NCBI GenBank assembly: GCA_038245115.1
Contig: JBBRSS010000004.1
Span: forward strand, 1,804 to 65,803
Source: Candidatus Saccharimonadia bacterium
GTDB lineage: Bacteria; Patescibacteriota; Saccharimonadia; UBA4664
DNA length: 64,000 nt
Direction: 5' to 3'
Numbering within the stretch: position 1 is the stretch's first letter; every line of letters begins with the position of its first letter. The notes under the pieces are model-generated. The model ran no database searches. It saw only the letters and a list, made by a program, of their open reading frames with translations, and had not been told where the DNA came from. Both the position numbers and the translations under genes were made by a program. This document shows positions 1,672 through 40,831 of the stretch, piece after piece.

Positions 1672-3855
1672 TTATCGCCGCACACGTGAGAGCTTCGATG
1701 GCCACCAAATACTGTGGCCAATGTCGTAAGATAACGCCGGGACCAGGAGTGATCTCACGATTATTGTGTCTAACAACACCCCGAATGCAACTATAAACGC
1801 GAGCTGGGCCAAGAACAGAATCGGTATAATCGCGAGGGCCGCAAAGGTGGCTGCCAAGACCATTCCCGCCGAGGTAATAACACTGCCCGTTACTCCCAGC
1901 CCACGCAATATCCCCGGACGGGTACCAATTTTCAACGACTCCTCGCGCACTCGAGTCATGAGAAAAATATTGTAATCAACGCCGAGCGCCACCAAGAACA
2001 CAAAACCAAATAATGGCACCGTTGGATCTGCCCCAGGGAAGTTTAGTAGATGGTTAAATACCAGAGCCGACACGCCCAAGGTTGCAGCGTAGCTAATAAC
2101 CACACTCAAGATTAGCAGGATAGGCGCCAAGATAGAACGTAGCAATAGCATCAGTATCAGCAAAATTACCACCAGTACGATCGGGATTATCCTGTAGAGG
2201 TCGGCGCGAGCAGTATCGTTACTATCGATAGCGATAGCGGTCACACCGCCAACTTTCACGGTAGAGTCCGTACTCGGTAACGCCTGCCTTAGGTTACGTA
2301 CCACCAGCTCGGCCGCCGCCGAGTCAGCCTGGTCTATTAGGGTGGCATTAATGAGCGCTTTGCCATCAACAACTTTGGGTGCTGGACGATTGGAGGCCGT
2401 GGGGTCGACCGGTCCAGCGTAAATGTAGGCAGCCCCGATGCCGGCGGTGCCCCCGACCGCTTTGAGAGTATCCTGAGCCTTGGCTTCATCGGTAATAATA
2501 GCCACCGGACTGCCCGATCCGGCGTCGAAATGCTTGCCAAGCGCCTGCTGCCCGTCAACCGCCTCCGACTTTGACAGAATCAGGGCGGTTTGGGAGACGC
2601 CGCTGGCTTTGAGTTGCGGCAAGCCCAAAATACAGGCCCCTAGAACAGCCAAAGCGACCAGCCAAGTCGTCCGCGGTCGACGCGCAATTAGGCTGCCAAC
2701 TCCCCTCCAAAAGCCGGGAATGCCCTCAAGCCCAGTTGCATTGTTTGTGGTATTCGCATGCGGGTGGGCGAGATTAATTTTGGGCGTTAGCGGCCAGTAT
2801 GCCTTGCGTCCAAAGGCAAACAGTAGCGCCGGCAGCAGCGACATCGCGGCCAGGAATGAGAAGAAAATGCCGATGGCGGCAATCGGACCCAGGCTGCGGT
2901 TGGAATTGAGGTCAGAGAATAATAGGCAAAGCAGGGCCAAAATTACCGTTGCGGCTGACGCGGCTATTGGCTCTATCGAGTTTTTTATGGCATGCATAAT
3001 CGCTACCCATTTACTCTCGACTGTTTCCAGGGCTTCACGATAACGAGCGCAAAGCAACAGTGAGTAATCTGTCGCTGCGCCGATCACCAGTATGGATAGA
3101 ATGCCCTGGCTCTGCCCGTTGAGTTTAATCCAGCCCCAACTAGCCATGAAGTAGACCAGTAATATTGCAGCAGTAAGGGCGAACATGGCAGTAAACAGAA
3201 CCACAAAGGGCAGTATTATTGATCGGTAAACCAAGAGCAAAATAACAAAAACCGCCCCAATAGCTACCAGTAACAAAATACCGTCAATTCCGCCGAAGGC
3301 AGATACGAGGTCGGCGGTTAGTCCCGCCGGGCCCGTTACGTATCCAACAGTCCCATCTGGCGTATTGGCGCTCACTTGCTTACGTAGCTCCTTTACAACC
3401 ACGCCCACATTGTTGGTATCAGCCACGGGGACGATATATTCTACGGCCAAACCGTCTACCGATGGTATCGGACCCGCCACCGCTGTAGACTGTCCCGCCG
3501 GAGCTGACTGAACTCCGCTAACTGAGCCCAAATTCACGCCCAGCTTCACCAACTGAGGCAGTTGTGACGGAGTAATTTTGACGGGGGAGGTTACTACTAC
3601 AATTGCCGGAATAGATTTGGAGGCCGCAAACTTAGCTTGAACAGATTGGACTTTGGTACTCTCGGCGCTCGCTGGCAAAAACGATGCCTGATCATTGCTC
3701 GACACCGATTTGAGCTTGCCGAAAGTCGGCCCTCCTACACCTGCCGCAATAAACCACCCAACTATAACAATTGCCGGCAGCACAATTCGCACCCAACGGG
3801 CGGGTCCGTTATTGGGCATTGGTTTCACAGCTTCTCGTTTTGGTGAATGTGGCAT
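1672..3855 (-). CDS. MMPL-family (RND superfamily) membrane transporter
   Basis: 727 aa with two 6-TM bundles, each followed by a large extracytoplasmic loop. Carries the MMPL-typical GVDYNIFLMTRVREE signature. Confidence 0.8.
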   Translation of the reverse strand: MPHSPKREAVKPMPNNGPARWVRIVLPAIVIVGWFIAAGVGGPTFGKLKSVSSNDQASFLPASAESTKVQSVQAKFAASKSIPAIVVVTSPVKITPSQLPQLVKLGVNLGSVSGVQSAPAGQSTAVAGPIPSVDGLAVEYIVPVADTNNVGVVVKELRKQVSANTPDGTVGYVTGPAGLTADLVSAFGGIDGILLLVAIGAVFVILLLVYRSIILPFVVLFTAMFALTAAILLVYFMASWGWIKLNGQSQGILSILVIGAATDYSLLLCARYREALETVESKWVAIMHAIKNSIEPIAASAATVILALLCLLFSDLNSNRSLGPIAAIGIFFSFLAAMSLLPALLFAFGRKAYWPLTPKINLAHPHANTTNNATGLEGIPGFWRGVGSLIARRPRTTWLVALAVLGACILGLPQLKASGVSQTALILSKSEAVDGQQALGKHFDAGSGSPVAIITDEAKAQDTLKAVGGTAGIGAAYIYAGPVDPTASNRPAPKVVDGKALINATLIDQADSAAAELVVRNLRQALPSTDSTVKVGGVTAIAIDSNDTARADLYRIIPIVLVVILLILMLLLRSILAPILLILSVVISYAATLGVSALVFNHLLNFPGADPTVPLFGFVFLVALGVDYNIFLMTRVREESLKIGTRPGILRGLGVTGSVITSAGMVLAATFAALAIIPILFLAQLAFIVAFGVLLDTIIVRSLLVPALSYDIGHSIWWPSKLSRVRR

Positions 3856-3967
3856 AAAATTTTAACTTTCAGGCTCTTATAACTCCACAATTTTAGTCCA
3901 TGTCGTGATCTAAAGTAAAACAGGCGCAGTTGCGTGGCACTAGCTAGGTTTCGGCGAGCAAATGACC

Positions 3968-3983
3968 TGTGATCTTAATCACA
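3968..3983. promoter_or_regulatory. Perfect CRP-family palindrome TGTGATCTTAATCACA in the divergent MMPL / cytochrome-b-like intergenic region
   Basis: TGTGA-N6-TCACA read directly from the sequence. It sits 86 bp upstream of the 4069 start and about 113 bp upstream of the 3855 start. Confidence 0.45.
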
Positions 3984-4068
3984 CTGTACGGCACAGCATA
4001 AGTGGTATATTTAACAAAATAATAATGACGCCGCTCGCGAGTTTCGCTCGTCGGTCGCCAAGGAACAA

Positions 4069-5478
4069 ATGGCTAAACGCAATTCTTCTTCCAGACCAAT
4101 TCGCACTGCCCTGCAAAATCTCATGATTCGCGATGTCCCGTCCTATGCCAACAAGTTCGCCTATTCGCTGGGTTTTCTTTCGGCCGTCTCATTCTTTTTG
4201 CTAGTTGCCACCGGCATTATTATGGCTATGGCCGGGCCTCATTGGTGGATAACCAGCTCCTTAGGGCAGTATCTGCGCAGCTTCCATCTCTGGGCTACCC
4301 AAGCCTTCGTCGTATTTATCCTGCTGCATTTAACGATTGTATTTCTAACGTCAGGCTACAAAGGCTCCCGCAAATTCACCTGGGTGCTGGGCGTCTTGAT
4401 GTTCTTCTTTGCTCTAGCCGAAGCCGAATTCGGTTACGTATTGCGTGGAGATTTCTCCTCTCAATACCGCAGCCTGCAGGGTTCCGACCTCTACAACGGC
4501 AGCGGTATAGGCTGGGTTCTCAACAACCTCAACACCGGTCAAGTCATGGGCATTCACATTGCAGTATTGCCGCTGACCTTAATTGTCCTCATTCTGGCCC
4601 ATTATTTTCTTGTGCGGGTCCTTGGTATTGGCAAGCCGTCACCGGCCGCCGACGCTTACCCGATGGTCAAAGCGAATCACGGCTTACTATTTTGGCGCGG
4701 CGGTACCGTAATTGCGCTGGTGGCGGCCTTGGCCTTTGCTTACCCTTCGCCCTATTTGGCGCCGCTGACTATCAGCAAGATTGCCAGTGACGATCCGGCG
4801 CTAATTTCGCAAACCCTCGTTAAGGAATTTGACGGCACATCCGACACCGCCACCTATAAAAACAATATTGCCCCGTACACGTTTAATTCGCGGTCCGTCT
4901 ATATCGAGGCCCCCTATACGCAGCTTAAGGCTACCCAGACCACTCCTAGCCAATTGAAGCTGTTCCTGGCACAGCCAGCCGAGGTTCAAAAGACGCAGCT
5001 TGATGCCGCCACGGCGTTTTATGCTGCCGACCCAGTGAGCAAAACGCTGCCCAAGGGCAACCAGGCCATCGCCGTAGTCGACAGCCTTACGACCATGGCA
5101 AAAAGCGGCCTCTACGAAGCCGCTCTGCGCGACAGCAACGGATCCGGCTACCAAACTACTTATGTGGTCAGGTTCTTGTCTGATACTGGTGTACCCGAAG
5201 AAACCGCCACTAGTATGAATATGACCACAGATCAATACGGCATGGTTCGCGAAGAGGCCAACAGCCAAGCACCCGGCGCTTGGTGGCTGGCACCAATCGG
5301 GTTGCTCAACCACACCGTCCTGGCCAAAGATGAGGACAACGGCGACCGCGACGGTGCTATCATTATTGGCACCTCCTTGCTTCTGTTGCTGGCCTTTCCC
5401 TTTATTCCGTTCCTAAACCGGCTTCCTGAGGTGTTGCGTATACGCAAGCTGTTTTGGCGCAAACCAAGCTCCAAGTAG
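4069..5478 (+). CDS. Di-heme cytochrome b N-terminal-domain protein (b6 type) fused to a roughly 200-aa extracytoplasmic domain between two extra TM helices
   Basis: Helix B carries H-x13-H (FHLWATQAFVVFILLH) and helix D carries H-x14-H (GIHIAVLPLTLIVLILAH), which is the b6-type spacing. RKFTWVLGVLMFFFALAEAEFGYVLRGDFSSQ matches the cytochrome b TW..G....AF.GYVLPWGQMS block. The quinol-site C-terminal domain is absent, replaced by a TM, a soluble domain and a final TM. Confidence 0.65.
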   Translation: MAKRNSSSRPIRTALQNLMIRDVPSYANKFAYSLGFLSAVSFFLLVATGIIMAMAGPHWWITSSLGQYLRSFHLWATQAFVVFILLHLTIVFLTSGYKGSRKFTWVLGVLMFFFALAEAEFGYVLRGDFSSQYRSLQGSDLYNGSGIGWVLNNLNTGQVMGIHIAVLPLTLIVLILAHYFLVRVLGIGKPSPAADAYPMVKANHGLLFWRGGTVIALVAALAFAYPSPYLAPLTISKIASDDPALISQTLVKEFDGTSDTATYKNNIAPYTFNSRSVYIEAPYTQLKATQTTPSQLKLFLAQPAEVQKTQLDAATAFYAADPVSKTLPKGNQAIAVVDSLTTMAKSGLYEAALRDSNGSGYQTTYVVRFLSDTGVPEETATSMNMTTDQYGMVREEANSQAPGAWWLAPIGLLNHTVLAKDEDNGDRDGAIIIGTSLLLLLAFPFIPFLNRLPEVLRIRKLFWRKPSSK

Positions 5479-5540
5479 TTATCGCAAGGTTCTCCTGTCC
5501 TTCTCATCTAATTCTAAGCAAATCGTAGTACATTTGGCTC

Positions 5541-5993
5541 ATGAAAAAACTCTTACTAGGTGCATTTGTTGTCGGAAGCTATATCATATATAGCTTCCAT
5601 CAGCGCGGGGAGGGATCAGCGGCCGTGGTGCCGCCATCTATCCAATCCACGCCGCCCGCCTCAGGGGCTACTGCCACTCCAGGTGCTGCCTCTACGCCTG
5701 CTGTTGCCTATAAGGACGGGCAATATACCGGCCAGTCTGCCGATGCCTACTACGGCTACATTCAGGTAAAAGTGACGATCTCCGGGGGTAAACTGTCCAA
5801 CGTTGAATTCTTGCAATCTCCCAGTGATCGATCCACCTCGGTGCGAATTAACTCTCAAGCCATGCCCTACCTCAAACAGGAGGCCATACAGGCTCAGAGC
5901 GCCGGCGTAGACGGTGTTTCTGGCGCCACCGATACCAGCCAAGCTTTCATCCAGTCCCTAACATCTGCGCTCAAAGCCGCACAAGCAGCTTGA
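5541..5993 (+). CDS. Membrane-anchored FMN-binding-domain protein (FMN_bind), predicted ApbE flavinylation substrate
   Basis: N-terminal TM (LLLGAFVVGSYIIYSF), a Pro/Ala/Thr linker, the YKDGQYTG FMN_bind start, and the flavinylation motif VDGVSGAT (Thr codon at 5928-5930). Confidence 0.75.
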   Translation: MKKLLLGAFVVGSYIIYSFHQRGEGSAAVVPPSIQSTPPASGATATPGAASTPAVAYKDGQYTGQSADAYYGYIQVKVTISGGKLSNVEFLQSPSDRSTSVRINSQAMPYLKQEAIQAQSAGVDGVSGATDTSQAFIQSLTSALKAAQAA

Positions 5994-6733
5994 AACAGAC
6001 CCGACAAATAATGGGTATGCCGGTGACGCTTATTGTCGAGGATGAAACTGCCTCCGCAGACATATTTGATCAAGCCTATGCTTATTTTACGAAGGTCGAT
6101 CAAGCCTACAGCCCGTACATCGCCACCAGCGAAGTCTCGCGAATTAACTCTGGCCTGCCCGAATCTGATTGGAGCCCCCAAATTACCGAGGTCGCGCAAC
6201 TATGCCGCGACACCTCCACTGCCACCGATGGCTATTTCGACGCCTGGCATCACGGCAAATTCGATCCCTCCGGTATCGTCAAGGGCTGGGCTATCAATAA
6301 TGCCGCCAAGCTATTGAGCAGCCTTGGTTGTCAAAATTATTACGTTGAAGCGGGTGGCGACATTCAGGTGAGCGGTTTTAACGCTTCGCACGAACCTTGG
6401 CATATTGGCATTCGCAACCCGTTTGATCGCCGGCAGAACGTCAAGGTGGTCTCGCTTAGTACCCAGGGAATTGCCACCTCGGGGCTTTATATCCGCGGCG
6501 CACATATATACAACCCACACGATGATAAAGCGCAACTTTCCGAAGTCGCTTCTCTGAGCGTCATCGGGCCAAATATTTACGAAGCCGACCGCTTCGCCAC
6601 CGCTGCTTTTGCAATGGGCCCTGCCGGCATCAATTTTATCGAGTCGCTGCCGGGCCTAGAGGCTTATATGATAAATAAGTCAGGCCAGGCGACGCTCACA
6701 AGCGGCTTCGAGCAGTATGTGAGGGCTAATTGA
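5990..6733 (+). CDS. apbE: ApbE-family FAD:protein FMN transferase (short form with no signal peptide)
   Basis: MGMPVTLIV, FDPSGIVKGWA, AGGDI and NPHD blocks of ApbE. TTG start in a TTGA overlap with the upstream stop. 247 aa beginning directly at the conserved MG.P block. Paralog of 13712..14449. Confidence 0.7.
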   Translation: MKQTRQIMGMPVTLIVEDETASADIFDQAYAYFTKVDQAYSPYIATSEVSRINSGLPESDWSPQITEVAQLCRDTSTATDGYFDAWHHGKFDPSGIVKGWAINNAAKLLSSLGCQNYYVEAGGDIQVSGFNASHEPWHIGIRNPFDRRQNVKVVSLSTQGIATSGLYIRGAHIYNPHDDKAQLSEVASLSVIGPNIYEADRFATAAFAMGPAGINFIESLPGLEAYMINKSGQATLTSGFEQYVRAN

Positions 6734-8247
6734 TGAAATATCTCGATAAATTCCTCGACCGCATCACCATGTACCATTTGTTGGTCTATTACTTGTACGC
6801 GCTTCTGGGTGCTGCCATGCTATTGAGTGCAGTTGGCGCCTTGGCATATAATCCGCTGGCAATCGCTATTTCTGCCGGTTATTTAGTAGCGGTTTGCCTG
6901 GTAGCCAACCGTGTCTTTGCGGCCATCTTTAAAGCCCCAAGCAATCCTGAGTCATCCCTCATTACTGCCCTCATTTTGGCTTTAATTATTACGCCGCTAG
7001 CCTCTATCCAGAGCCTGGTATTCTTAACTGCCGCCGCCGGGCTCGCTATTGCCTCAAAGTATTTACTGACCATCCGGGGACGGCACATTTTTAACCCCGC
7101 CGCAGTGGCCGTAGCACTAACGGCGGTGGGCGCCGGCGAATCTGCCAGCTGGTGGGTGGGCAGCGCGGCTCTAGCTCCGGTGGTGATCATTGGCGGCATC
7201 ATGTTAGTACGCAAGGTCAGGCGGGTCCAGATGGTGGCGCTGTTCATTATCACTGCCGTGGTCGCTACGTCTATATTAACCATCATCAGCCAAGGCAATG
7301 TCGTCGGCGAAATCCAAAAAACCTTCCTGCAGTCATCATTGCTCTTTCTTGCATTTGTGATGCTCACTGAGCCGTTGACCTCGCCCGCACAAAGTCGTCA
7401 TCAACGCTGGTATGCCATATTGGCCGGGGTACTCTTTCCGCCCCAGATTCATTTGCTGTCGCTCTATTCCACGCCCGAACTTGTGCTGCTAATTAGTAAC
7501 ATCTATGCCTATATCGTTAATCCCAAGGTCAAGCTGTTGCCTTTGCTCCAAAAAAAGATTTCTTGGGGTCCGAATACTGCCGATTTTGTCTTTGCCCTCG
7601 ACCAGCCGATAGATTATTTGCCGGGACAATATATGGAATTTACTTTGCCGCACTCCAAACCGGACTCTCGCGGCAGCCGGCGTTACTTTACACTCGCGTC
7701 GTCACCAACTGAAAATAATCTTCGCTTGGGCGTTAAATTCTATCCCCGAGGCAGTACATTCAAACAGGCACTTCGCAACATGGGCAAGACTACGCCCTTC
7801 GCTGCGGCCCAGTTGAGTGGCGACTTTGTTCTCCCCAACGACTCTACCCGCAAACTCGCCTTCGTCGCCGGCGGTATCGGCGTGACACCATTTAGGAGTA
7901 TGATCAAATACTTGTCCGACACCGACGACCCCAGATCTGTGACCTTATTGTATTCCGAGCGGACCGCGGCCGATTTGGCGTACGTTGATGTATTCACGGC
8001 CGCCCAAGCCAAACCTGGGACCAAAATTGTCTATACCCTCACCGATGCCAACACAGCGGTACCGACAGGCATGCAGGCTGGGTTCATTACTGCCGAAATT
8101 ATTCAAGCCGAAATTCCTGACTACAAAGACCGTCTTTTCTACATTTCCGGGTCTCATTCTATGGTAAGTGCTATGCAGTCAGCCCTAGGCGAGCTCGGAG
8201 TATCTAAGCACAATATTAAGATTGATTTCTTCCCCGGCTACGTTTAA
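6733..8247 (+). CDS. Fusion of a polytopic membrane domain (NqrB/RnfD-like, HIFNPA motif) with an FNR-type FAD/NAD(P)-binding oxidoreductase domain
   Basis: N-terminal ~270 aa with about 8 TM and GRHIFNPAAV. C-terminal RRYFTLASSP (FAD RxYS/T motif) and AFVAGGIGVTPF (NAD GGxGxxP). TGATG overlap with apbE. Confidence 0.6.
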   Translation: MKYLDKFLDRITMYHLLVYYLYALLGAAMLLSAVGALAYNPLAIAISAGYLVAVCLVANRVFAAIFKAPSNPESSLITALILALIITPLASIQSLVFLTAAAGLAIASKYLLTIRGRHIFNPAAVAVALTAVGAGESASWWVGSAALAPVVIIGGIMLVRKVRRVQMVALFIITAVVATSILTIISQGNVVGEIQKTFLQSSLLFLAFVMLTEPLTSPAQSRHQRWYAILAGVLFPPQIHLLSLYSTPELVLLISNIYAYIVNPKVKLLPLLQKKISWGPNTADFVFALDQPIDYLPGQYMEFTLPHSKPDSRGSRRYFTLASSPTENNLRLGVKFYPRGSTFKQALRNMGKTTPFAAAQLSGDFVLPNDSTRKLAFVAGGIGVTPFRSMIKYLSDTDDPRSVTLLYSERTAADLAYVDVFTAAQAKPGTKIVYTLTDANTAVPTGMQAGFITAEIIQAEIPDYKDRLFYISGSHSMVSAMQSALGELGVSKHNIKIDFFPGYV

Positions 8248-8266
8248 TTGGTGGCCCACTGTAACC

Positions 8267-8665
8267 TTACTTATCGCGCCGGTGATCAATTCGCTCACCA
8301 AAAACTTGTGCATCCTGGCCAGCTGGGTAGCCACCCTGCATAGTCTTTTCTTCGGCGCCCGCAACATCTAGCGCAACTCCGCCCGAAGACCTCAGGACAA
8401 GGTTAAACACAAAGCCGTTCACGTAACCAATCAACCATCCGATGGCAAAGTAGACAACGGGTAACACAAACAGTGACAAGGCACCGATCGTCATACCCAT
8501 AAGCAACCCCTGTATCAAACTATCGGTGGCATTCGTGTACGCAATTGTCCCGCTAAACAAATACATTATTGACACTACCAGACCAATAATCGCACCAAAC
8601 ACACCCTCAAACATCGCTACTGTTGATGGCTTAATTCCTGTAACCATTACCTCTCGTTCATTCAT
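8267..8665 (-). CDS. Hypothetical small membrane protein (3-4 TM)
   Basis: ORF of 132 aa with hydrophobic helices, convergent with the upstream redox module. Confidence 0.4.
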   Translation of the reverse strand: MNEREVMVTGIKPSTVAMFEGVFGAIIGLVVSIMYLFSGTIAYTNATDSLIQGLLMGMTIGALSLFVLPVVYFAIGWLIGYVNGFVFNLVLRSSGGVALDVAGAEEKTMQGGYPAGQDAQVFGERIDHRRDK

Positions 8666-8841
8666 AATTCCGTACTCCTTATACCCAAAATTCTAAGCCT
8701 CCTCCAAGGCGCTAGACATTGGAAGATCATCCATGAATTCTGCACATCCGAAGCATTATTTTCGACAATACTAGGCTCCCGGTGGGCATTACCGGGTGCG
8801 ACCGTTTTCGTCCAGTTAGGCCTGCTAACATATATTCGCCC

Positions 8842-10884
8842 TTAGGCAGCGGCGGTCAGCGCAGGCGCCGCAAACTGGCTATTGTATAGCGAAGCGTAGA
8901 AACCGTCCCGGTATATAAGCTCCTCGTGAGTGCCCTGCTCCACAATATTGCCATCCTGCATTACCAGTATTAAGTCGGCGTTTCGGATCGTCGACAGCCG
9001 GTGCGCAATCACAAAGCTAGTCCGGCCCTTCATGAGCCGCTCCATGGCAGCCTGAATCATTATCTCCGTACGAGTGTCAACCGAGCTTGTCGCCTCGTCG
9101 AGGATCAACATGGGGGTGTCGGCTAACATGGCACGCGCAATCGTAATCAACTGCTTCTCGCCCTGAGAGATATTGTCTGCTTCCTCGTTGAGCATCATCT
9201 TATATCCGCCGGGCAGAGCGCGAATGAAGTGGTCGGCATGCGCCGCTTCTGCTGCCTCAACCACTTCCTGGTGAGTAGCCTTGGATTTACCGTAAGCAAT
9301 ATTGTCCTCGATTGTGCCATTAAATAACCAAGTGTCTTGCAGAACCATGCCAAATAGGCGTCGCACATCCGAGCGCTTCATCTCGCGGATATCAACACCA
9401 TCCATCCTGATACTGCCTTCGCTAACATCGTAAAATCGCATGAGCAGGTTTACGATTGTCGTCTTGCCGGCTCCCGTCGGGCCAACGATCGCCACCCGCT
9501 GACCCGGTCGAATAGCCGCATTCAAGCCCTTGATGACGGTTTTATCTGGGGTATAGCCAAAGACCACATTATCAAACTCAACGGCGCCCCTGACCTTGTC
9601 GATCGCGACGGGACTAGCTGCCTCCGCGACCTCTTCGTCCTCATCCAAGAATTCAAATACTCGCTCGGCCGCCGCTGCCGTAGACTGCAATACGTTAGCA
9701 ATGTTGGCAGTCTGGGCAATTGGCTGGGTGAACTGGTTCATATATTGAATAAATGCCTGAATATCACCGATGTTGACCTTGCCGTTAATTGCCAGCCATC
9801 CGCCTAACACCGCCACCGCAACATATCCTAAATTGCCCACGAATTGCATTATCGGCATCATTAACCCGGAGAGAAATTGTGACCGCCAAGCACTTCCGTA
9901 CAGCTCGGTATTAATCGAGCGAAATTTCCCAACTGAGCGCTTTTCACCGTTAAATGCCTTCATGACGGTATGGCCCGATAGCATCTCTTCCACGTGGCCG
10001 TTTATCTTGCCGAGAGACACCTGTTGGGCAACAAAATAGCCCTGTGACTTTCCGACGATCAGCTTTATTAGCACCATGCTAACCGGTAGCACCAACAGCG
10101 CGACCACCGTCATTTGCCAGCTAATCGTCAGCATAATAATCAGGATGCCGATTATGGTTGTCACCGAGGTTACGATCTGGCTCAGACTTTGGTTCAGGGT
10201 TTGGCTGACGGTATCGACATCGTTGGTCACCCGGCTCAGGACTTCGCCGTGCGTACGGTTATCAAAATATCGCAGCGGCAAGCGGCTGATTTTCTCGGAA
10301 ATATCGCGGCGTAAGTTAAAAGTTACCTTTTGTGATACGCCGGACATTATCCAGCCTTGAATGTAGCTAAAGAGGGCGCTAATGACGTAGAGTCCCACCA
10401 GCAACTCCACTAGCTTGGCGATGCCGCCAAAATCGATCGTTGGCCGTTTGGACAGGTTTAGGGTGGCAATTTTATTGAGCTCTTTGGCGGGAATTCGCTT
10501 GATATCACTTGCCGGCATCAGTTTAATCAACTGGGCCCCGGTCATACCCGGCGGAATATGCATGCCGGCAGGTAGTTTTCGCATCACTTGGTCGTAAACC
10601 ATCCCGTCTATATAACCGGTAGCAACTTTATTGGTGACGTTGCCCAATATTTTTGGACTGACTACCGCAAAAATTGTACTGGCAATCGCAAATATTAGCA
10701 CCGCCACAATCGATAATCTAAATGGCCGCAGGTATTTCAGCAGGGTTCGCATTGTTCCCTTGAAATTCTTTGGTTTCTCGGCCGGCCCGCCCATCATTGG
10801 ACCTCGTCCCATCCCCATTCCTAATGTTGCGGGAGGAGGGCTTTTGGGAGTTCGCGGTGCCGAGTTGGAGTGATTATTGCTCAT
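8842..10884 (-). CDS. ABC exporter, fused permease/ATPase (type I, MsbA-like), heterodimer partner 2
   Basis: 6-TM domain plus NBD with Walker A GPTGAGKT, signature ISQGEKQ and Walker B ILDEATS. 4-nt overlap with the upstream ABC gene. Confidence 0.85.
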   Translation of the reverse strand: MSNNHSNSAPRTPKSPPPATLGMGMGRGPMMGGPAEKPKNFKGTMRTLLKYLRPFRLSIVAVLIFAIASTIFAVVSPKILGNVTNKVATGYIDGMVYDQVMRKLPAGMHIPPGMTGAQLIKLMPASDIKRIPAKELNKIATLNLSKRPTIDFGGIAKLVELLVGLYVISALFSYIQGWIMSGVSQKVTFNLRRDISEKISRLPLRYFDNRTHGEVLSRVTNDVDTVSQTLNQSLSQIVTSVTTIIGILIIMLTISWQMTVVALLVLPVSMVLIKLIVGKSQGYFVAQQVSLGKINGHVEEMLSGHTVMKAFNGEKRSVGKFRSINTELYGSAWRSQFLSGLMMPIMQFVGNLGYVAVAVLGGWLAINGKVNIGDIQAFIQYMNQFTQPIAQTANIANVLQSTAAAAERVFEFLDEDEEVAEAASPVAIDKVRGAVEFDNVVFGYTPDKTVIKGLNAAIRPGQRVAIVGPTGAGKTTIVNLLMRFYDVSEGSIRMDGVDIREMKRSDVRRLFGMVLQDTWLFNGTIEDNIAYGKSKATHQEVVEAAEAAHADHFIRALPGGYKMMLNEEADNISQGEKQLITIARAMLADTPMLILDEATSSVDTRTEIMIQAAMERLMKGRTSFVIAHRLSTIRNADLILVMQDGNIVEQGTHEELIYRDGFYASLYNSQFAAPALTAAA

Positions 10885-13248: not shown

Positions 13249-13707
13249 ATGGTTATGAATAAACTCAACCCCAAGTCAGATAAGCCTCATCTGCCCGTCG
13301 CCGCTATAGTCGCCTGGGTTACCGCCCTGCTCGCCTCGGCCGCCAGCGTTTACTTTATCGAAATCTTGCACAACCCAGTTGCTACATTGTGTTGGGTTGA
13401 CCGAATGTTGGTCTTTTCGCTCCTGCTCGTGCTCACCGTTGGCATTATCGACCGAGACCGGCGCGTCGTGCGTTTTTGTTTCCCGTTTTTGGCCCTGGGT
13501 CTACCGCTGTCTTTCTATCAGCAGCTCGTGCATTGGGACCTCATCCACATCAATCCTCAGGTTTGCAGCATCAGCTATGTTTGTACAACCAAATATTTCA
13601 ATCTCTTCGGCATTATTACTCAAGCCACCCTCTGTTTTGCCGCTTTCGTCATTATTGCCGTGTCGATGTATATGCTGCGGGATCGTCACTTGCCAGCCAA
13701 GCCCTAG
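13249..13707 (+). CDS. DsbB/BdbC-family disulfide-oxidoreductase-like membrane protein with loop-1 CxxC replaced by TxxC
   Basis: Four TM. SVYFIEILHNPVATLCWVDRM aligns to the BdbC PCxLCWYQR block but keeps only one Cys. The second periplasmic loop keeps C-x5-C (CSISYVC) and the YFNLFG block. Confidence 0.5.
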   Translation: MVMNKLNPKSDKPHLPVAAIVAWVTALLASAASVYFIEILHNPVATLCWVDRMLVFSLLLVLTVGIIDRDRRVVRFCFPFLALGLPLSFYQQLVHWDLIHINPQVCSISYVCTTKYFNLFGIITQATLCFAAFVIIAVSMYMLRDRHLPAKP

Positions 13708-13711
13708 CTGG

Positions 13712-14449
13712 TTACGGCCGCTCAAACCTGCGAAAACCTTCGGTTAATACTACTCGGCCCTGCTTGTCGATCGACATTGCCTCGTAACCTTGTCTATGTA
13801 AAAACGGTAATGCTTGATCGCCCATGCAAAATGCCGCCGTCGCCAGAGCATCAACTTGGTCAATTGTTGGGCCGATTACGGTTAGACTCACCGGGTCCTC
13901 AACCATCTGCCCGGTTCGAGGATTGTATATATGGTTGCCGCGTTCGTAATTGCCCGAGGTAGCAACGGCCATATTTTTAAGGTAAAGCTTTTTTGCCAAC
14001 TTAGTGGGGTCAAAAGGATGGGCGATCCCGATAACCCATGGGCCTCCGGATGGTCCGTCGCCGCTAATCTGCATATCGCCCCCGGCATTAATGCAGTACC
14101 GGGTGATGTCGCGGCTGTTGAGGAGTCGTGCTGCGCGGTAAATAGCCCACCCCTTAACGTATCCGGACGGGTCGATATGCCCATCTCGTGCCACGTCAAA
14201 GTACCCTTCGGTCAATTTTTTCAAACGGGCGCATTCCTCCAGCACCGCCCGCAAATCATCACTCGATTTCGGCAACTCTAATTCGCCGCGGTTAAGCCGA
14301 CTAACCTCGCTTGTGGGCTTATAGGTACTAAACGCCTCGTCAACCTCGTGGAAATATTCAAATACATCGTCGATGGCGGCGTCCGCCGCATTGCCGTCAA
14401 GCACCTCTAGGGTGATAGGCATACCCATTATATTTTGTGAAACTTTCAT
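13712..14449 (-). CDS. apbE: ApbE-family FAD:protein FMN transferase, second paralog (no signal peptide)
   Basis: MGMPITLEV, HIDPSGYVKGWA, AGGDMQ and NPRTG blocks. Collinear with the 5990..6733 protein at about 40-50% identity. Confidence 0.7.
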   Translation of the reverse strand: MKVSQNIMGMPITLEVLDGNAADAAIDDVFEYFHEVDEAFSTYKPTSEVSRLNRGELELPKSSDDLRAVLEECARLKKLTEGYFDVARDGHIDPSGYVKGWAIYRAARLLNSRDITRYCINAGGDMQISGDGPSGGPWVIGIAHPFDPTKLAKKLYLKNMAVATSGNYERGNHIYNPRTGQMVEDPVSLTVIGPTIDQVDALATAAFCMGDQALPFLHRQGYEAMSIDKQGRVVLTEGFRRFERP

Positions 14450-14458
14450 GACTTTCTA

Positions 14459-16060
14459 TTGTACAATAACCATATGCACGATACGCCGCTAGAGAACGCG
14501 CAAAAGCTCATTTCGGAAGGAAAATCGACGGCCGAAATAAGGGCTGCTCTCAATGGCGAAAGCTTTGTGCCTTCGCCAGCTGTTGCGCCGCAGGCAAGCC
14601 TCACCCCCGCCGCCTCGAATGCAGCCTCTTCGCCCAAACCCAACGCCTCGGCTTCGCCTCAGCCGCCCGCTTCGGCCCCTCCTGCTCCCGCACCGAAGCC
14701 GATGGTCTACCCGCCGCTGCTGGATACGCCGCTACGGACGGGCGTTCAGGCCCCCAAGCTAGGCTGGCCGCTGATAGTGCTGGCCTGTTTAATACCGGCG
14801 CTCGCAATATCAGTCGATACGCCCTTTGCTGAGCGATTTGGTAGTTTATCGAATGCCCTTATTGCTTTCGGCGACATTACAGGTGTCATTGGCCTGGCGG
14901 CGTACGTTCTCAATTTGGTGCTGGCAACCCGCTTTCATTGGCTGGAAGATTTGTTTGGCGGCCTCAACCGCGCCCTGATAGCCCATCAAGTTTTGGGCGG
15001 CATAGCACTTATTATGCTGCTATTTCACCCCATCCTCACGGCAGCCTCTTACTATTCCTACGGTGTCCAGGCAGTTGCCCATTTTTTTGTGCCTTCGGTC
15101 GCCTATATTGGCACGGCTTTCGGTATTGTTGCTCTCGCGATGATCATCATCTTGTTGGTCCTGAGTTTCTATATCAAAATTGGCTACCGACTATGGCTGC
15201 AAACCCATAAATACCTTGGTCTGGCCTATCTCCTCATAATGCTGCATGTCCTATTGACGCCGAATCGCATCACGGCTGACCCGTTTGTTAAATGGTACCT
15301 GTACCTTCTTCTGGTTGTGGGGGCATTTGCCTTTATTTATCGCACGTTACTGCCAAATATATTCGTCCGCCGGTATCTGTATACCATTGCCGCTGCGCAG
15401 CCCAAAGGCATCGGCGTAGTCGAGGTTACGTTGGCGCCAGTGAACAAATCCGTCCACGTTCGAGCTGGGCAATTTATTTTTGTGACATTCAGTAGCGATG
15501 GGCTATCGTCCGAATCGCACCCTTTTAGCATCTCATCGGGCGAGAACTCCAACCAGCTGATGATCGACGTCAAGTCGCTCGGGTCGTATACGGAAACTCT
15601 CACCCGGCTTCTACCGCATATGGTTGGCATGACGGCTCAGGTTGAGGGAGCATATGGCCGATTTTCGTACCGCAACATTGGGAATTTAAACCAAGTTTGG
15701 ATTGGCGGGGGAATAGGTATAACGCCGTTTCTGAGTATGGCGCAAACTCTCGGATCCGGGCCGTATAATATCGACCTGTATTACTCGGTAAAGACGGCAA
15801 GTGAGCTAATTGACCTCGACACCCTGGCGATCCATCAATCCAACCTACCGGGCCAGGTGTTTCGGACTTTTCCGTTTATCACTGAAACTTACAAGTCGTA
15901 CTTGAGTGCCGGCATCATCAAGAAGAATAGCGGCAATCTCGATAAACGGGACTTCCTCTTGTGCGGCCCGCCCGGCATGATGCAGGAAATCAAGAAGCAG
16001 CTCATAAAGCTTGGGGTCAAAGAAACTCGGATTCACAGCGAAGAATTCTCGCTCGAATAA
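14459..16060 (+). CDS. NOX/ferric-reductase-family flavocytochrome: a 6-TM bis-heme domain plus FAD and NAD(P)H domains, with a Pro/Ala/Ser-rich N-terminal extension
   Basis: TM3 has H-x13-H (IAHQVLGGIALIMLLFH) and TM5 has H-x12-H (THKYLGLAYLLIMLH), the NOX spacing. HPFSISS is the FAD motif and GGGIGITPF the NAD motif. The first ~95 aa are low-complexity. Confidence 0.7.
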   Translation: MYNNHMHDTPLENAQKLISEGKSTAEIRAALNGESFVPSPAVAPQASLTPAASNAASSPKPNASASPQPPASAPPAPAPKPMVYPPLLDTPLRTGVQAPKLGWPLIVLACLIPALAISVDTPFAERFGSLSNALIAFGDITGVIGLAAYVLNLVLATRFHWLEDLFGGLNRALIAHQVLGGIALIMLLFHPILTAASYYSYGVQAVAHFFVPSVAYIGTAFGIVALAMIIILLVLSFYIKIGYRLWLQTHKYLGLAYLLIMLHVLLTPNRITADPFVKWYLYLLLVVGAFAFIYRTLLPNIFVRRYLYTIAAAQPKGIGVVEVTLAPVNKSVHVRAGQFIFVTFSSDGLSSESHPFSISSGENSNQLMIDVKSLGSYTETLTRLLPHMVGMTAQVEGAYGRFSYRNIGNLNQVWIGGGIGITPFLSMAQTLGSGPYNIDLYYSVKTASELIDLDTLAIHQSNLPGQVFRTFPFITETYKSYLSAGIIKKNSGNLDKRDFLLCGPPGMMQEIKKQLIKLGVKETRIHSEEFSLE

Positions 16061-16078: not shown

Positions 16079-17155
16079 CTAGCTTAGTAGATCGGCAACA
16101 AAAATTCCGATGAGGCTGACAAAGAACAGTATCAGTGAGACTCCCACCAGGGCTTTGATCGGCCTCGCGTGCCCGGAGCCAACCAACTTCAGCAGCCTTC
16201 GTCGCAAGACGTATACGGCTGCGGCGAACAGGGCGAAAACACTGCCGAATCCGATTAATATTCCCATTGGCAGAGGTTGTTTTGATGCCGCCGCCGTAAG
16301 CGAAAACTTTTCGCCCCCGGCCGTTCCTTGGACCGTCAGCTGAAACTGGCTCTTGTCGCCTTTGTATGTCACCTGCGCCAACTCTTGGCCCGCCGCAATA
16401 CCGCTAAAGAGCGCATCCCCCTTATCGTCTGTCGGCATAGTTTGGCCGCCCAGAGTCACCGTCGCGGCTACCGCTGGGCTGCCGTTTTTATCTGTGACAT
16501 GAATTAAGACCGTTCCAGGCAAAACCTCGGCCGCGGGCTGAGTCGGGTCGGTTGTTATAGGTTCGCTACTCACTACGGCTGGTGAGGGATTTGCATCTGG
16601 GGTTGCGCCGGGCGATGAGCCGGGTGATGCGTTTGTCGCCGGTGCCGGGGTGGTCGAGGGTGAGCCTGGCTTGGGAGTTGGCACGGGTGTGTGACCTGGG
16701 GCCACCGTTGGTGTCGGCGTGTGGGTTGGTAGGGGAGTTGGAGTGGGTGTGTGACCGGGGGCGGGAGTCGGCGCCGGCGTCGGTACAGGCGTCGGTTTGG
16801 GGGTCGGCACTGGCGTTGGTTTGGGCGTCGGCACCGGTGTTGGCACCGGCGTCGGTACTGGCGTCGGCTTTGGTGTCGGCACCGGCGTCGGCGTTGCGCA
16901 GGGCGTCGCGGTCGAACACGCATTAACACCAGTTGCCTTAAAGCCCCCGAGGACCTCATTTATTAATATTGTCACTCCCGACTTCGGGCCGTTCGATGCC
17001 ATACGGTCAGTATTGCCTGGTGTGCCGCTATATTTCTGAGCCGTCTGATTGATGTTGTATTGGCTTATCAATTCGTAGAGTATTGGCACAGCAAACACCC
17101 CCACCAAAATATAGGATCTGGTTAGGCGGCGCTTTAGGAGTTTTTGTCGCTTCAT
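16079..17155 (-). CDS. Cell-surface protein with a (PTPV/K)n proline-threonine repeat, an Ig-like/CarboxypepD_reg-like domain and a C-terminal LPMG-hydrophobic-RRR segment followed by another TM
   Basis: N-terminal signal anchor, roughly 100 aa of [12 protein letters not shown] repeats, then [28 protein letters not shown]. Start taken at the internal MKRQK. Confidence 0.5.
16768..16905. repeat. Tandem 12-nt repeat (GGCGTCGGCACC and variants) encoding the Pro-Thr-Pro-Val/Lys linker
   Basis: Period-12 repetition visible directly. It generates spurious ORFs on both strands. Confidence 0.7.
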
Positions 17156-17313
17156 TATGATAATACTATCACGCCTATGCTTTCCTCGATATACGCGCTG
17201 ACAAGCAACAATGAGGCTCCCGCGCCGAATAACCAGCAACGGCAGTCGGCAACTGTTTCAGCAATGATTCCAGATACGCTATACTAGTCGCGTACTTCAT
17301 CTCGGAGGCGCCC

Positions 17314-19604: not shown

Positions 19605-21209
19605 TTAGCGCAGTACGTCGTCGCGTTTATCGCGCAAAAATGAGTTCCACTGCTCAATAATTCTGAGGATTGTTTTGAACGGTGTTTCAATAATAATGTC
19701 CAAGATCGACGTGAAGATATTGATTCGGCTGTAGCGCTCGGCCAGCCATTGGCCCGCCCGAATGAAGGGTGTTAGCAGAAAATCGCTTAAATTCGCGATG
19801 AGGCCCGGGTCTTCCTCGATAACAGCGTACTCACGGACCGAGTAGGCGATACGGTAGGCAAAGAAGCTGACCGTCGAGAGAAATACGAAGAAAATAATTC
19901 CGCTTACTAGGTTGAATCCGACTATCTGCAACATCCACGATATTGCCGCCAAAGTTGCCAATGAGGTTAGCAAATAAAACAGGCTAAATGTGCTGCGCAT
20001 TTTTGACGTCCGCCCGCGACTGGATAGGGTGTAGCGTATTGGCTGCTGATCCGAAACATACACGATCTGCTTCAAATCGCTCAGGATTTTGGTGGTGTTG
20101 CGTTGGCCGGGGATCTTAATTGTGAGTCCGACCATTGCCATATATAGCGGCGGGAAGAGCAGATTGATTCCGAGCGGCAGGTAGTTGACCGCGCCGTAGG
20201 CGAATAGTTCATACGGAATCTCGATAATCATCCCCAAGACTACCTTGGTAATAAACAGGAATATTACCGCCTGCACCACGCTGCGTTTGAGGCGGCTCGA
20301 TACCACTTGATACTGCGTTTCGGCCACACTTCGGGCTTTTTCGATCAGTACGGATGGGGTAGTGGCGAGCTGCTCGAGGCCTTCGTGGCTGGTTTTGATA
20401 ATTTCGCGCAAAATCAGATACGGCGCAATGTGGCGACGCACTAACCGGAACATACGATGTGGGGTGGCACCCCCAGTTTGGTCATCCAGCTGAGCATTAA
20501 TTTCGACAAATTGCTTGCCGGCAGCCTCTAGTTGGGCATTATCCTCGAGCCAGCGGGGGAAGGCTCGCGAAAATACCCCGTAACGGATAGTTGCAATATC
20601 AGATTTCAATAGTGCCTTGTGTACGGCGGCGTACAGTGCCATTTGGTCTTCTCGGGCCACATCGGCGTGATCTATGAACGCCGCATACGTAAACTCGACT
20701 ATCGCGGCCTCGGTCGGGTTCGGCTGCAATGCCCGCTCGAGCTCCACCGAGAGCAAAGCGATAATATTGCTGGCAATTTCGTCGTGACTATCGTGACTTC
20801 GCGATAGCGCCGTCTGTTGTAGCGAGCCGTACCGCCGAACAATGTAATCGATATACTCAATTTCATCTTCGCGGATAGTGTCGTTATCCAAATAGCGGGT
20901 TTTGGTAAGTTCGCTTACCAATTCAAACCCGATGTCTTCCGACCCGTTGGGTTTTAATTCACGCAGTAAAAATCGTTCAATTGCGCCGCGCAAGAATAAG
21001 TGTTGTTCGCGATACTCAACGGCATTGCGAATCTGCTCATACAAAAAATATGCCCCGGCGGTAATTTCCGGAACGTGGACCTTTGTGCCTTTCCAGACCG
21101 GAGCCTGTTGCGCACGCAATAGCTGCACGAGTCCTTGCATTAGCGGTGATAACTTCGGCGCGTCCGCGGACGGGGCGGCAGTTATCTTATTCTCGAGCGG
21201 ATTATGCAT
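19605..21209 (-). CDS. Hypothetical protein, large N-terminal soluble domain plus C-terminal 4-TM region
   Basis: ORF of 534 aa with no recognised motifs; hydrophobic helices at residues ~330-450. Confidence 0.45.
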
Positions 21210-21249
21210 AGCGCAATTGTACCACTACGAGTTGGTGTACAATCGAATA

Positions 21250-22863
21250 ATGAAACTTACTACCCTCCCTGAATGGAAAAAACTTCAAGCTCATTACGAT
21301 GCCAACAAGACCGCTCATTTGCGCGATCTGTTTGCTACCGACCCGTCTCGAGCCGAGTCCTTAAGCCTCGAAGCAGGCGATATCTTTGTCGATTATTCGA
21401 AAAACCGCCTCACCCGCGAAACGCTTGAGTTGCTGCTCGATCTCGCCCGGGCCACCGGAGTCGAGCAGCTGCGTGACGGCATGTTTTCCGGGGTACACAT
21501 TAACACCACCGAAGATCGATCGGTACTTCATACCGCGCTGCGCCGTCAGTCGTCGGGCCCACTTGTAGTTGATAGTGTCGATGTCGCCGCTGACGTTCGT
21601 GCGGTGCTGGATCAAATGAGCCAATTCGCCACCGCTGTGCGGTCTGGTGCCTGGACTGGCCACACTGGTAAGCGCATCAAGACGGTCATTAATATTGGCA
21701 TTGGCGGCTCCGACCTTGGCCCGGTGATGGCAACTAGCGCGCTACGCTTTTACTCTCAGCGCGATATTACCCTCAAGTTTGTTTCCAATATCGACTCCAC
21801 TCATCTAGTGGAGGCCACCCGAGGTCTTGACCCCGCCGAAACGCTGTTTATTATTGCCTCCAAGACCTTTACTACCGACGAAACCATGACCAACGCCCAG
21901 AGCGCTCGTGAATGGCTAATTGCCGGCTTGGGCGATGAGGCCGCGGTGTCCAAGCACTTTGTGGCTCTTTCCACCAATGCCGCTGATGTCAAAAAGTTCG
22001 GTATCGATACTGCCAACATGTTTGGCTTCTGGGATTGGGTCGGCGGCCGCTACTCGCTCACCAGCGCCATCGGCCTGTCGTTGATGATATCTATTGGTCC
22101 GGATCACTTCCGCGAGCTCCTGGCCGGCTTCGACACCATGGATGAGCATTTTCGTACCGCCCCTCTCGAACAGAATTTGCCCGTAATCTTGGGTCTTATC
22201 GGCATTTGGTATACCGATTTCTTTGGCGCCGAAACCGAGGCCATCCTACCGTACGAACAGTACCTCGACCGGTTTGCGGCCTATATGCAGCAGGCCAATA
22301 TGGAATCCAATGGCAAGAGCGTTACCAAAGCCGGCCAGGCTGTGGACTACTCCACGGCGCCAGTTGTATGGGGCGAGCCGGGGACCAATGGCCAACATGC
22401 GTTCTACCAGCTGATTCACCAAGGCACGCACCTTATCCCAGCCGATTTTATTGGCTTCATGAAGCCATTGAACCCTCTAGGTGAACATCACCCCAAACTC
22501 ATCGCCAACTTGTTCGCGCAAACAGAGGCCTTGGCGTTTGGCAAAACCGCGGCCGAAGTAGCTGCTGCCGGAGTGCCCGCAGATCTGGTGGCTCACAAAA
22601 CCTTCGCCGGCAATCACCCCTCCAATACTATCCTGATGCCGTCACTCACTCCGCACGTCCTAGGCCAATTGATTGCCCTATATGAGCACAAAATATTCGT
22701 TCAGGGCGCCGTGTGGCAGATCAATTCCTTCGATCAATGGGGCGTTGAGCTTGGTAAGCAGTTGGCCAAAACCATCTATGGTGAGTTCGGGGCTGGCGAG
22801 GCTTCGCAAGTTCACGATTCTTCCACGACGCAGCTCATTAACCGTTTTTTGGCTCAACGCTAG
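21250..22863 (+). CDS. pgi: Glucose-6-phosphate isomerase
   Basis: [22 protein letters not shown] and [18 protein letters not shown]. The ORF track extends upstream only because no stop codon intervenes. Confidence 0.9.
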
Positions 22864-28150: not shown

Positions 28151-28584
28151 TTATTCCGGTGGCGTTTGCCGATCGGGCCGGTGGGTGCGGCGTCTCATTT
28201 GAGCCACGCCCAGACGGACGGTTTGGCGGTCCACCAGTTCTTGGGCACGGGCCAGCTCGTGTTTGTCGCCAGCCTTTGCCTTAAGCGCCTCGGCTTCAGC
28301 TAAAGCTATCTGAATCTCTCCCTGCACCAACGAGTCTTCGTGTTCAGCCTCGTCGGCCAAGACGCGTGTAGCGTCTGGTGTGACTTCCAGCAGGCCCCCG
28401 AACGTCGCAAAGATTGTCTGCTTGCCGCCTTTTTCGCGCACCACTACCGAACCTGGCTTCACGACGGCGGTGAGCGGTTCGTGATTCGGCAATACACCGA
28501 TTTGGCCGTTCGCCGTGGTGAGAGTAACCTCTGTCACCTCGCCACGGAATTTGGCCCCGGTTAATGTGAGCAGTTCAAACAGCA

Positions 28585-28585
<1 letters not shown>
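28151..28585 (-). CDS. atpC: F1 ATP synthase epsilon subunit
   Basis: Operon position; GQIGVLPNHEPL; C-terminal helices. Confidence 0.8.
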
Positions 28586-30856
<2,271 letters not shown>

Positions 30857-30859
30857 TGA

Positions 30860-32395: not shown

Positions 32396-32775
32396 CGGCT
32401 GACTCCTTGTACAAATGTTGCGAGCTTAGTTCGAACGGTAGCATCGAGGTGCGCATCGGGGGTCTCTATTTGAGCTCCGCCGATAATTGCTGGGTCCACT
32501 GCAGTATCAAGCTCCAGCTCTTTGGCACCCGTAGCTTCTCGAATAAATTTCTCAATCCGACCTTGGGTTTCGTCGGACATCGGCCGCGCGGTGGTGACCC
32601 TGGCGCTCACGTAACCGCGGGAGGCCAATACTTTGGCGACGTCCCTCGCCAAATATCCGGCCTGGCGCTGTCGCCCGGTGCTTACCAACCAGGCCGCGGC
32701 CGACTTCATCGCGCCGTTTCGGTCGGATGTGAGGGAGCTAGCCACGTGGGCAGCTACTTGTGCGCGGCTGGCCAT
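32392..32775 (-). CDS. atpH: ATP synthase delta (OSCP) subunit, short 127-aa form
   Basis: [26 protein letters not shown] is the OSCP C-terminal block. 4-nt overlap with atpA. Confidence 0.7.
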
Positions 32776-33302: not shown

Positions 33303-33309
33303 AGTTAAA

Positions 33310-33525: not shown

Positions 33526-33594
33526 TGAGGAATGTTCCTTTATTTATTATGTACTTTGATGAAATATATCTTGACTGTTAAGAATATAAGCTCA

Positions 33595-40765: not shown

Positions 40766-40831
40766 GCATCTAGTGTATACCCGCTGATATGAGTGCGGCT
40801 TCGGTCCAATATATTTGCTACAGTAGATAAC

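Follow-up and report, generated by a model that had tools for sequence, protein, structure and literature searches.

We analysed a 64,000-nucleotide (nt) stretch of DNA from Candidatus Saccharimonadia bacterium (contig JBBRSS010000004.1; hereafter the window), in which a compact group of plus-strand genes encodes a predicted flavoprotein together with the enzyme that very probably modifies it. The FMN_bind gene (5541–5993, +; 150 amino acids (aa)) specifies an NqrC/RnfG-like subunit predicted to be a substrate of flavinylation, the covalent attachment of flavin mononucleotide (FMN). It is followed by apbE1 (5990–6733, +; 247 aa) for a short, leaderless FAD:protein FMN transferase (FAD, flavin adenine dinucleotide) and, with an ATG overlapping the apbE1 stop codon by 1 nt, by a gene (6733–8247, +; 504 aa) whose product fuses an NqrB/RnfD-like, ten-helix membrane domain (~6733–7530) to a FAD_binding_6/NAD_binding_1 reductase (~7540–8244). 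A gene for a di-heme cytochrome b (4069–5478, +; 469 aa; PF13631 and PF00033) lies 62 nt upstream of the FMN_bind gene. An earlier interpretation of the same DNA, made without database searches (the sequence-only reading), had dealt with the FMN_bind protein and the adjacent apbE; it did not include the genes for the fusion protein and the cytochrome b, the third and fourth of the module.

The 5541–5993 reading frame is the only FMN_bind gene within the window. Its product matched PF04205 (FMN_bind) with residues 70–145, covering positions 2–77 of the 77-position profile (E = 3.9e-10; bit score 40.7, Pfam gathering cut-off 22). Within this domain, and in the frame of the gene, the codons GAC GGT GTT TCT GGC GCC ACC (5910–5930, +) encode D124-G-V-S-G-A-T130, ~20 residues from the C-terminus, with the Thr130 codon ACC at 5928–5930 (+) filling the last motif position. 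ApbE enzymes recognize D-x-x-[S/T]-G-A-[S/T] and place FMN on the last residue (PMC12052999, PMC8238504), making Thr130 the predicted phosphoester acceptor. The sequence-only reading had claimed a canonical ApbE motif with this very Thr codon in an FMN_bind protein; both the in-frame codons and the extent of the PF04205 domain, which covers this conserved site, bear it out. In the best solved sequence relative of the domain, 8p2a_A (E = 1.6e-14; 37 of 84 residues identical), DAVSGAT aligned column for column with DGVSGAT, and the same columns held xTGAT/xSGAT sites in 3o6u and 8p2b.

The motif is far from a chance occurrence. The strict pattern D..[ST]GA[ST] was found once in the six-frame translation of the window, compared with a mean of 0.44 per window in mononucleotide shuffles, and its expected number in a 150-aa protein of this composition is 0.003. 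Homology searches returned 2597 relatives of the FMN_bind protein at E ≤ 0.001, the best 120 of which underlie all homologue counts given here for this protein. The [ST]GA[ST] core occupied the same C-terminal site in 120 of 120, the acceptor being Thr in 115 and Ser in five. The Asp that opens the motif, termed ‘strictly conserved’, was present in 77 homologues and replaced by Asn in 35 and by Ser in eight; Asp-to-Ala exchange at this position had minor effects in experiments (PMC12052999). A divergent subgroup of loci (L050, L051, L072, L074, L075) carried AGAS or SGSS in place of SGAT, alongside a leaderless ApbE of ~290 aa starting with FEAIGT. A second SGAT in the window protein (aa 41–44, within PPASGAT; 5661–5672, +) lies in a low-complexity linker and is probably a chance match; additional [ST]GA[ST] sequences were present in three of the 120 homologues. 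Since the motif Asp is dispensable for ApbE, this linker site could be adventitiously flavinylated as well.

ApbE1 matched PF02424 with E = 6.6e-40 (137.7 bits against a cut-off of 25.6), and its family profile matched Vibrio cholerae ApbE (6nxi) with E = 2e-28. The profile aligned to residues 33–98 and 151–297 of the latter and skipped residues 99–150. These ~50 missing residues belong to a helical insertion domain that separates the T-folds and that ApbE1 does not possess at full length. In a Foldseek search, the AlphaFold model of ApbE1 (pLDDT 92.9) retrieved all solved ApbE, FmnB and Ftp structures (among them 7esa, 6nxi and 4ifu) at E-values of 1e-20 to 1e-16 and query-normalised TM-scores of 0.85–0.90 (only ~0.7 when normalised to target length), the best match being FmnB 7esa (0.89). 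Invariant in 33 of 33 ApbE family sequences were K98, G122-G-D124, A162-T-S-G165, H172, D200 and T204. Alignments to the Escherichia coli and V. cholerae enzymes equated H172 with the general base H257 of V. cholerae ApbE, and D200 and T204 with the metal (Mg2+) ligands of the D-x-x-x-T motif. Position 43 of the same 33-sequence alignment, equivalent to Y60 of E. coli ApbE, held Tyr in 27 and Phe in six cases; an aromatic residue here marks FAD-binding transferases as opposed to the pyrophosphatase class (PMC4767422). Because its catalytic set is intact and its modelled fold is that of ApbE, ApbE1, though shortened, appears to be a competent transferase.

The two genes meet in the tetranucleotide TTGA (5990–5993, +), in which the apbE1 start codon TTG (5990–5992) overlaps the FMN_bind stop codon TGA (5991–5993). 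This direct succession with stop/start overlap had been read from the sequence alone and stands: the frame at 5990–6733 is the one that matches PF02424, and homologues back the TTG start. The public gene call for the identical ApbE protein begins at ATG 6011 (240 aa) and thereby omits seven conserved N-terminal residues (MKQTRQI; 5990–6010, +). The call by JGI for a relative (L083) uses the longer start, overlapping the FMN_bind stop. The N-terminus of the ApbE homologues follows the consensus M-K-x-T-R-x-(I/L)-M-G-M-P, with the form M-K-x-T-R-x-I-MGMP present in ~50 loci from several phyla and minor variants (MDMH, WNMP) in a few. At the aligned position, 7 codons upstream of MGMP (8 or 9 codons in six loci), the 43 syntenic loci from other genomes that were compared have ATG in 38, TTG in three and GTG in two cases. 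The interval from the upstream in-frame stop at 5849 to TTG 5990 contains no other start codon. Given the conserved N-terminus, the 43 syntenic loci and the lack of an alternative start codon in this interval, sequence comparison identifies TTG 5990 as the real apbE1 start and the TTGA overlap as real; a concealed N-terminal extension of ApbE1 is ruled out for the same lack of a further upstream start.

Across the 43 loci, the distance from the FMN_bind stop to the apbE start ranged from −4 to +22 nt, with a single outlier at 56 nt. No Shine-Dalgarno-like sequence was found 5′ of TTG 5990, which fits termination–reinitiation, and the overlap and the tight, conserved junction likewise make translational coupling of FMN_bind and apbE1 plausible. 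A programmed frameshift or readthrough that would join FMN_bind to ApbE and take the enzyme outside was rejected, as the −4 to +22 nt junctions of the 43 loci fall into all three frames. A promoter and terminator scan of positions 3700–8900 yielded counts not above those in shuffled sequences.

The fusion protein matched PF03116 (E = 2.9e-11; bit score 43.7, cut-off 27.7), PF00175 (E = 1e-12) and PF00970 (E = 3.8e-5). Single-sequence and profile searches of the PDB with the membrane domain gave a weak RnfD match only (profile against 8ahx_D, E = 0.004), confined to the region downstream of the FMN loop. The structural model of the fusion (pLDDT 81) comprises ten helices followed by an FNR fold matching the FAD domains of NqrF. 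According to model and sequence, positively charged loops of the membrane domain (IRGRH, RKVRR and SRHQR) lie on the FNR side, which would place a conserved short loop, G-x-[ST]-A-[SN]-W-W (GESASWW in the window), outside. In the first 270 aa of the fusion homologues, i.e. their membrane domains, [ST]GA[ST] was found in none of 120. This agrees with Fig. 4F–G of Huang et al. 2024, who modelled a Ktedonobacter example, noted that the Thr flavinylated in NqrB/RnfD is missing from its membrane domain and proposed that the pocket of the lost Thr is sampled by FMN tethered to the partner (PMC11334425). The RnfD-like domain was also considered as a second ApbE substrate and dismissed: the motif is missing from all 120 homologues, and the [ST]-A-[SN]-WW loop contains Asn in some.

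By scanning a genome collection with the family alignment, we assembled 80 loci, throughout which the order FMN_bind → ApbE → fusion recurred; 43 of them were fully resolved triads. The 80 loci span many Patescibacteria classes, Ktedonobacteria (Dictyobacter, Ktedonospora), other Chloroflexota, Alphaproteobacteria (Kaistia, Methylocapsa) and Spirochaetota, and gene order places the FMN_bind gene and apbE1 as the first two members of this conserved triad. Such loci correspond to the NQR/RNF-like systems introduced by Meheust et al. 2021, who described 127 clusters, chiefly from Actinobacteria and the candidate phyla radiation, on the basis of a protein with N-terminal PF03116 and C-terminal PF00175 encoded no more than five genes away from one for ApbE or FMN_bind (PMC8238504). 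Their scheme also looks for a signal peptide or lipidation site in one or more target genes of the cluster, for which the hydrophobic N-terminal anchor of the FMN_bind protein is a candidate in the window. In the window, a PF03116–PF00175 fusion (6733–8247) directly follows apbE1. Judged by these domains, the module is an NQR/RNF-like member from a Saccharimonadia-like genome, and hence of a kind that is already known and defined by sequence.

The di-heme cytochrome b contains two His pairs with b6-type spacing (H73/H87 and H163/H178), a soluble region of ~200 aa and an extra C-terminal transmembrane helix. Relatives with 85% and 71% identity have its gene in the same position immediately before the FMN_bind gene, although their outer flanks are different; the sub-lineage concerned includes loci L082–L085. 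The gene is absent from more distant loci, except L019, where it is found 3 kb away on the opposite strand. In view of this absence, comparison of the loci marks the cytochrome b as a lineage-specific addition. Its restriction to this sub-lineage led us to discard it as a core component of the module; it may serve as electron acceptor of the flavinylated subunit.

As to the localization of substrate and enzyme, the FMN_bind protein carries an N-terminal signal anchor (5550–5597, +; aa 4–19, LLLGAFVVGSYIIYSF), flanked by MKK and HQR and followed by a linker rich in Ser, Thr, Ala and Pro that extends to ~nt 5708 and has a median length of 39 aa in homologues. The N-terminal segment was the hydrophobic maximum in 120 of 120 homologues (mean KD17 2.04). 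In 109 of 120 its N-terminal flank was more positive than its C-terminal flank, suggesting an N-in/C-out orientation by the positive-inside rule, and the FMN_bind domain is thus predicted to be extracytosolic. Members from Spirochaetota and Alphaproteobacteria (L077, L080, L062) have instead cleavable-looking signal peptides ending in A-x-A. Among 120 ApbE homologues, a lipobox was found in none and no TM-like segment was detected; all listed homologues of ApbE1 are equally short and leaderless, and the divergent ~290-aa subgroup likewise lacks a leader. A lipoprotein or secretion signal is typical of characterised ApbEs acting on exported substrates, albeit not strictly defining. Because ApbE1 is leaderless while the substrate anchor is N-in/C-out, enzyme and substrate are predicted to reside in different compartments. 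Four options remain: flavinylation in the cytoplasm, either preceding export or in the course of it, a secreted ApbE whose gene lies in another part of the genome, a novel route of ApbE export, or an inward-facing substrate domain. Export of the folded, flavinylated domain by the twin-arginine translocation (Tat) system was rejected as a general route, as the flank is MKK rather than RR in this lineage and RR-like sequences occur in a few distant members only (L014, L077).

Motif, domains, conservation, synteny, catalytic residues and fold of the ApbE, and start position are direct observations, and we consider it highly probable that T130 is the FMN phosphoester site and ApbE1 its transferase, within an NQR/RNF-like triad for electron export. 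Translation of apbE1 would proceed by termination–reinitiation at TTGA, where the weak TTG start would yield less enzyme than substrate. With FAD and Mg2+, ApbE1 would attach FMN to Thr130 by a phosphoester bond and release AMP. Cytosolic NAD(P)H would then reduce the FAD of the FNR domain, and electrons would cross the membrane by way of the RnfD-like domain and arrive at the FMN bound covalently to T130 of the FMN_bind subunit, which would face outward; this tethered FMN would occupy the pocket of the RnfD-like domain, whose own flavinylated Thr is lost. A final transfer would reach an extracytosolic acceptor, which in this lineage is perhaps the upstream di-heme cytochrome b. We infer covalent FMN, electron path, direction, acceptor, coupling and the site of flavinylation from these observations; electron path, direction and acceptor are modelled by analogy with the homologous NQR and RNF complexes and on published proposals (PMC8238504, PMC11334425).

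Several points weigh against this interpretation. No signal peptide, lipobox or transmembrane segment was found in ApbE1, while the substrate domain is predicted outside, and this compartment mismatch is not explained by a simple picture in which enzyme meets substrate. A second ApbE encoded in the window (13712–14449) could in principle modify T130. The scores behind the RnfD-like assignment are modest (E = 2.9e-11 in Pfam and 0.004 for the PDB profile), and a Foldseek search with the whole fusion model returned matches to the FNR domain only among its top 50. The link to the cytochrome b is lineage-specific, and the role assigned to that protein is a guess. Finally, no biochemical or experimental characterisation of any NQR/RNF-like system was found in the literature searched, and the class is computationally defined only.

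The rival explanation that survives best concerns merely where and when T130 is modified. According to it, the leaderless ApbE1 would use cytosolic FAD to flavinylate the FMN_bind chain before its export, with translocation to follow; in the NQR/RNF-like module generally, ApbE would be cytoplasmic by design and act on the C-terminal motif before or during export. Both the account for the window and its extension to the whole module are possible, though we hold them tentatively. Neither ApbE1 nor any other ApbE of the cluster has an export signal, and yet all catalytic residues are kept. The chemistry is plausible since ApbE requires a terminal tag of seven residues only and works in the cytosol: the bare motif suffices as substrate, and co-expression of a truncated ApbE with NqrC in the cytosol led to flavinylation (PMC12052999). 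With the motif ~20 residues from the C-terminus, it belongs to the last region to leave the ribosome, and the tight gene junction would put enzyme synthesis beside the nascent substrate. No FAD export would be necessary. On the other hand, the literature examined gave no example of a flavinylated chain being translocated by Sec, and this lineage has no twin-arginine signal for the export of a folded, cofactor-loaded protein. Moreover, those characterised ApbEs that modify exported substrates leave the cytosol as well, and Salmonella enterica ApbE confined to the cytosol did not complement. If this explanation is correct, neither the enzyme nor FAD would have to be exported to produce a covalent flavoprotein outside the cytosol, which would amount to a new order of events in the ApbE-type flavinylation of exported proteins.

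The compartment mismatch would also be resolved if a signal-bearing ApbE encoded elsewhere in the genome modified T130 outside, leaving ApbE1 for FAD hydrolysis, flavin trafficking or another cytosolic target. The window covers 64 kb of the genome and itself contains two ApbE paralogues <8 kb apart. The second, apbE2 (13712–14449, −; 245 aa; PF02424, E = 9.5e-46), encodes a short ApbE 45% identical to ApbE1 in the alignment and qualifies by sequence as an alternative candidate transferase; an in-frame stop three codons upstream of its ATG leaves it leaderless too, and hence it offers no solution. Adjacency of FMN_bind and ApbE genes at −4 to +22 nt, kept in 43 loci across phyla, is the usual signature of a cognate pair, and no further protein with [ST]GA[ST] is encoded in the cluster. 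The aromatic residue (Tyr or Phe) equivalent to E. coli Y60 assigns ApbE1 to the transferases rather than the pyrophosphatase class, and the ApbE1 homologues listed are uniformly short and leaderless. Altogether, we regard modification by another enzyme as unlikely.

Still less probable is an inward-facing substrate, i.e. an FMN_bind domain that is cytoplasmic (N-out/C-in) in a module that is not an electron-export device. Such a topology would bring substrate and leaderless ApbE into one compartment, and the charge difference across the anchor (KK vs. H-Q-R-G-E) is modest. It is opposed by the positive-inside rule, which predicts N-in for 109 of 120 homologues, by the long Ser/Thr/Ala/Pro linker typical of extracytoplasmic tethers, by the A-x-A signal peptides of L077, L080 and L062, and by a published AlphaFold-multimer model in which the subunit is docked where NqrB has its FMN site (PMC11334425).

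That DGVSGAT is a relic or chance motif and flavin is bound non-covalently or not at all is very improbable: although covalent FMN is here a prediction from sequence and the first Asp is replaced by Asn or Ser in 43 of 120 homologues, its exchange for Ala has minor effects (PMC12052999), the [ST]GA[ST] core is found in 120 of 120 (with the Ser variant AGAS/SGSS in the divergent subgroup), a chance expectation of 0.003 was calculated, and a cognate apbE is always adjacent.

Divergently from apbE2 lies a gene (14459–16060, +; 533 aa) for a NOX/MsrQ-like protein with Ferric_reduct, FAD_binding_8 and NAD_binding_1 domains and a Pro/Ala-rich N-terminus of ~100 aa; neither an [ST]GA[ST] motif nor an FMN_bind gene was found in this apbE2 cluster. 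A metagenome scan for ApbE2 relatives retrieved two contigs of ~1.6 kb, too short for gene context. On a 1.5-kb metagenomic contig (L086), whose shortness precludes interpretation, a small open reading frame (ORF) with a twin-arginine signal (1266–1475, −; SRREFLGFLGAASLG) and an ApbE2-like gene are convergent. In the window, apbE2 is separated from a MarR gene by one for a 152-aa, Cys-rich protein with multiple transmembrane segments (13249–13707, +), which had no Pfam match and resembles a DsbB/BdbC-type thiol oxidoreductase by eye only. Long (P-T-P-x) repeats, hydrophobic segments at the termini and a weak CarboxypepD_reg-like domain characterise a 386-aa protein (16079–17239, −), probably a surface protein. 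Further downstream are F1Fo ATP synthase genes (28151–34443, −) and genes for dihydroorotate dehydrogenase (39644–40840, −), a D-lactate dehydrogenase-like FAD-linked oxidase (26363–28021, +) and phosphoglucose isomerase (20902–22863, +), the last with an N-terminal extension of ~160 aa. An Rfam scan of the 64 kb revealed no RNA gene or riboswitch.

Taken by themselves, the motif and the adjacent apbE amount to routine annotation of modest interest. Beyond the sequence-only reading, our analysis adds the lineage-specific cytochrome b and the opposition between a short, leaderless ApbE and an exported substrate. Patescibacteria are usually thought to lack respiratory chains. The NQR/RNF-like module, which is common among them and in particular in Saccharimonadia, may give them a route by which NAD(P)H electrons reach an acceptor outside or a cytochrome b in the membrane. 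Of broader interest is that a substrate predicted to be exported is consistently paired with an enzyme devoid of any export signal. The delivery of FAD and ApbE to extracytosolic substrates is still unsettled in the field (reviewed in PMC12052999), and the three-gene module is small enough for a direct test of this question in E. coli.

Among known systems, the window module shares with the published NQR/RNF-like systems their definition, their occurrence in the candidate phyla radiation, the loss of the NqrB/RnfD Thr and the proposed one-way flow from NAD(P)H to the outside (PMC8238504, PMC11334425). It differs in that a di-heme cytochrome b gene lies directly upstream only in the lineage of the window, a gene unmentioned in the 2021 paper (PMC8238504). 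By term search, neither the leaderless, shortened ApbE nor the compartment mismatch is raised in the main text of PMC8238504 or PMC11334425.

Similarity to V. cholerae NqrC and RnfG extends to the anchored FMN_bind domain, an FMN phosphoester (here predicted) on the last Thr of the motif, a nearby apbE and a partner of the NqrB/RnfD family. However, Na+-NQR and RNF consist of six subunits with a semicircular electron path, NqrD/E or RnfA/E and iron–sulfur centres, whereas the module in the window comprises two subunits only, one of them with a directly fused FNR domain. None of the other Na+-NQR/RNF subunits (NqrF/RnfB, NqrD/E, RnfA/E) is encoded with the module, its neighbours being the cytochrome b, MMPL and ABC transporters. 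NqrB and RnfD furthermore carry a covalent FMN of their own, in contrast to the RnfD-like domain in the window, which lacks that Thr, and V. cholerae ApbE is an exported lipoprotein of ~330 aa, compared with 247 aa and no leader for ApbE1.

The extracellular electron transfer system of Listeria monocytogenes (PplA, flavinylated by the lipoprotein FmnB) resembles the module, as proposed, in having extracytosolic FMN_bind domains that an ApbE-family enzyme flavinylates covalently, and in moving electrons out of a monoderm cell, but it relies on Ndh2, quinone, EetA/B, a secreted lipoprotein transferase and FAD export by RibU/FmnA, none of which is present here. The 8p2a domain (BBA Adv 2023, PMC10339131) is one of several tandem FMN domains of a ‘beads on a string’ protein, while the protein in the window has a single FMN_bind domain and shares its operon with a membrane reductase. 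Klebsiella pneumoniae ApbE (cited in PMC12052999) resembles ApbE1 in lacking a signal peptide and is active in the cytoplasm; its substrate is a soluble, cytoplasmic NADH:fumarate reductase, whereas that in the window has a signal anchor and is predicted to face outside.

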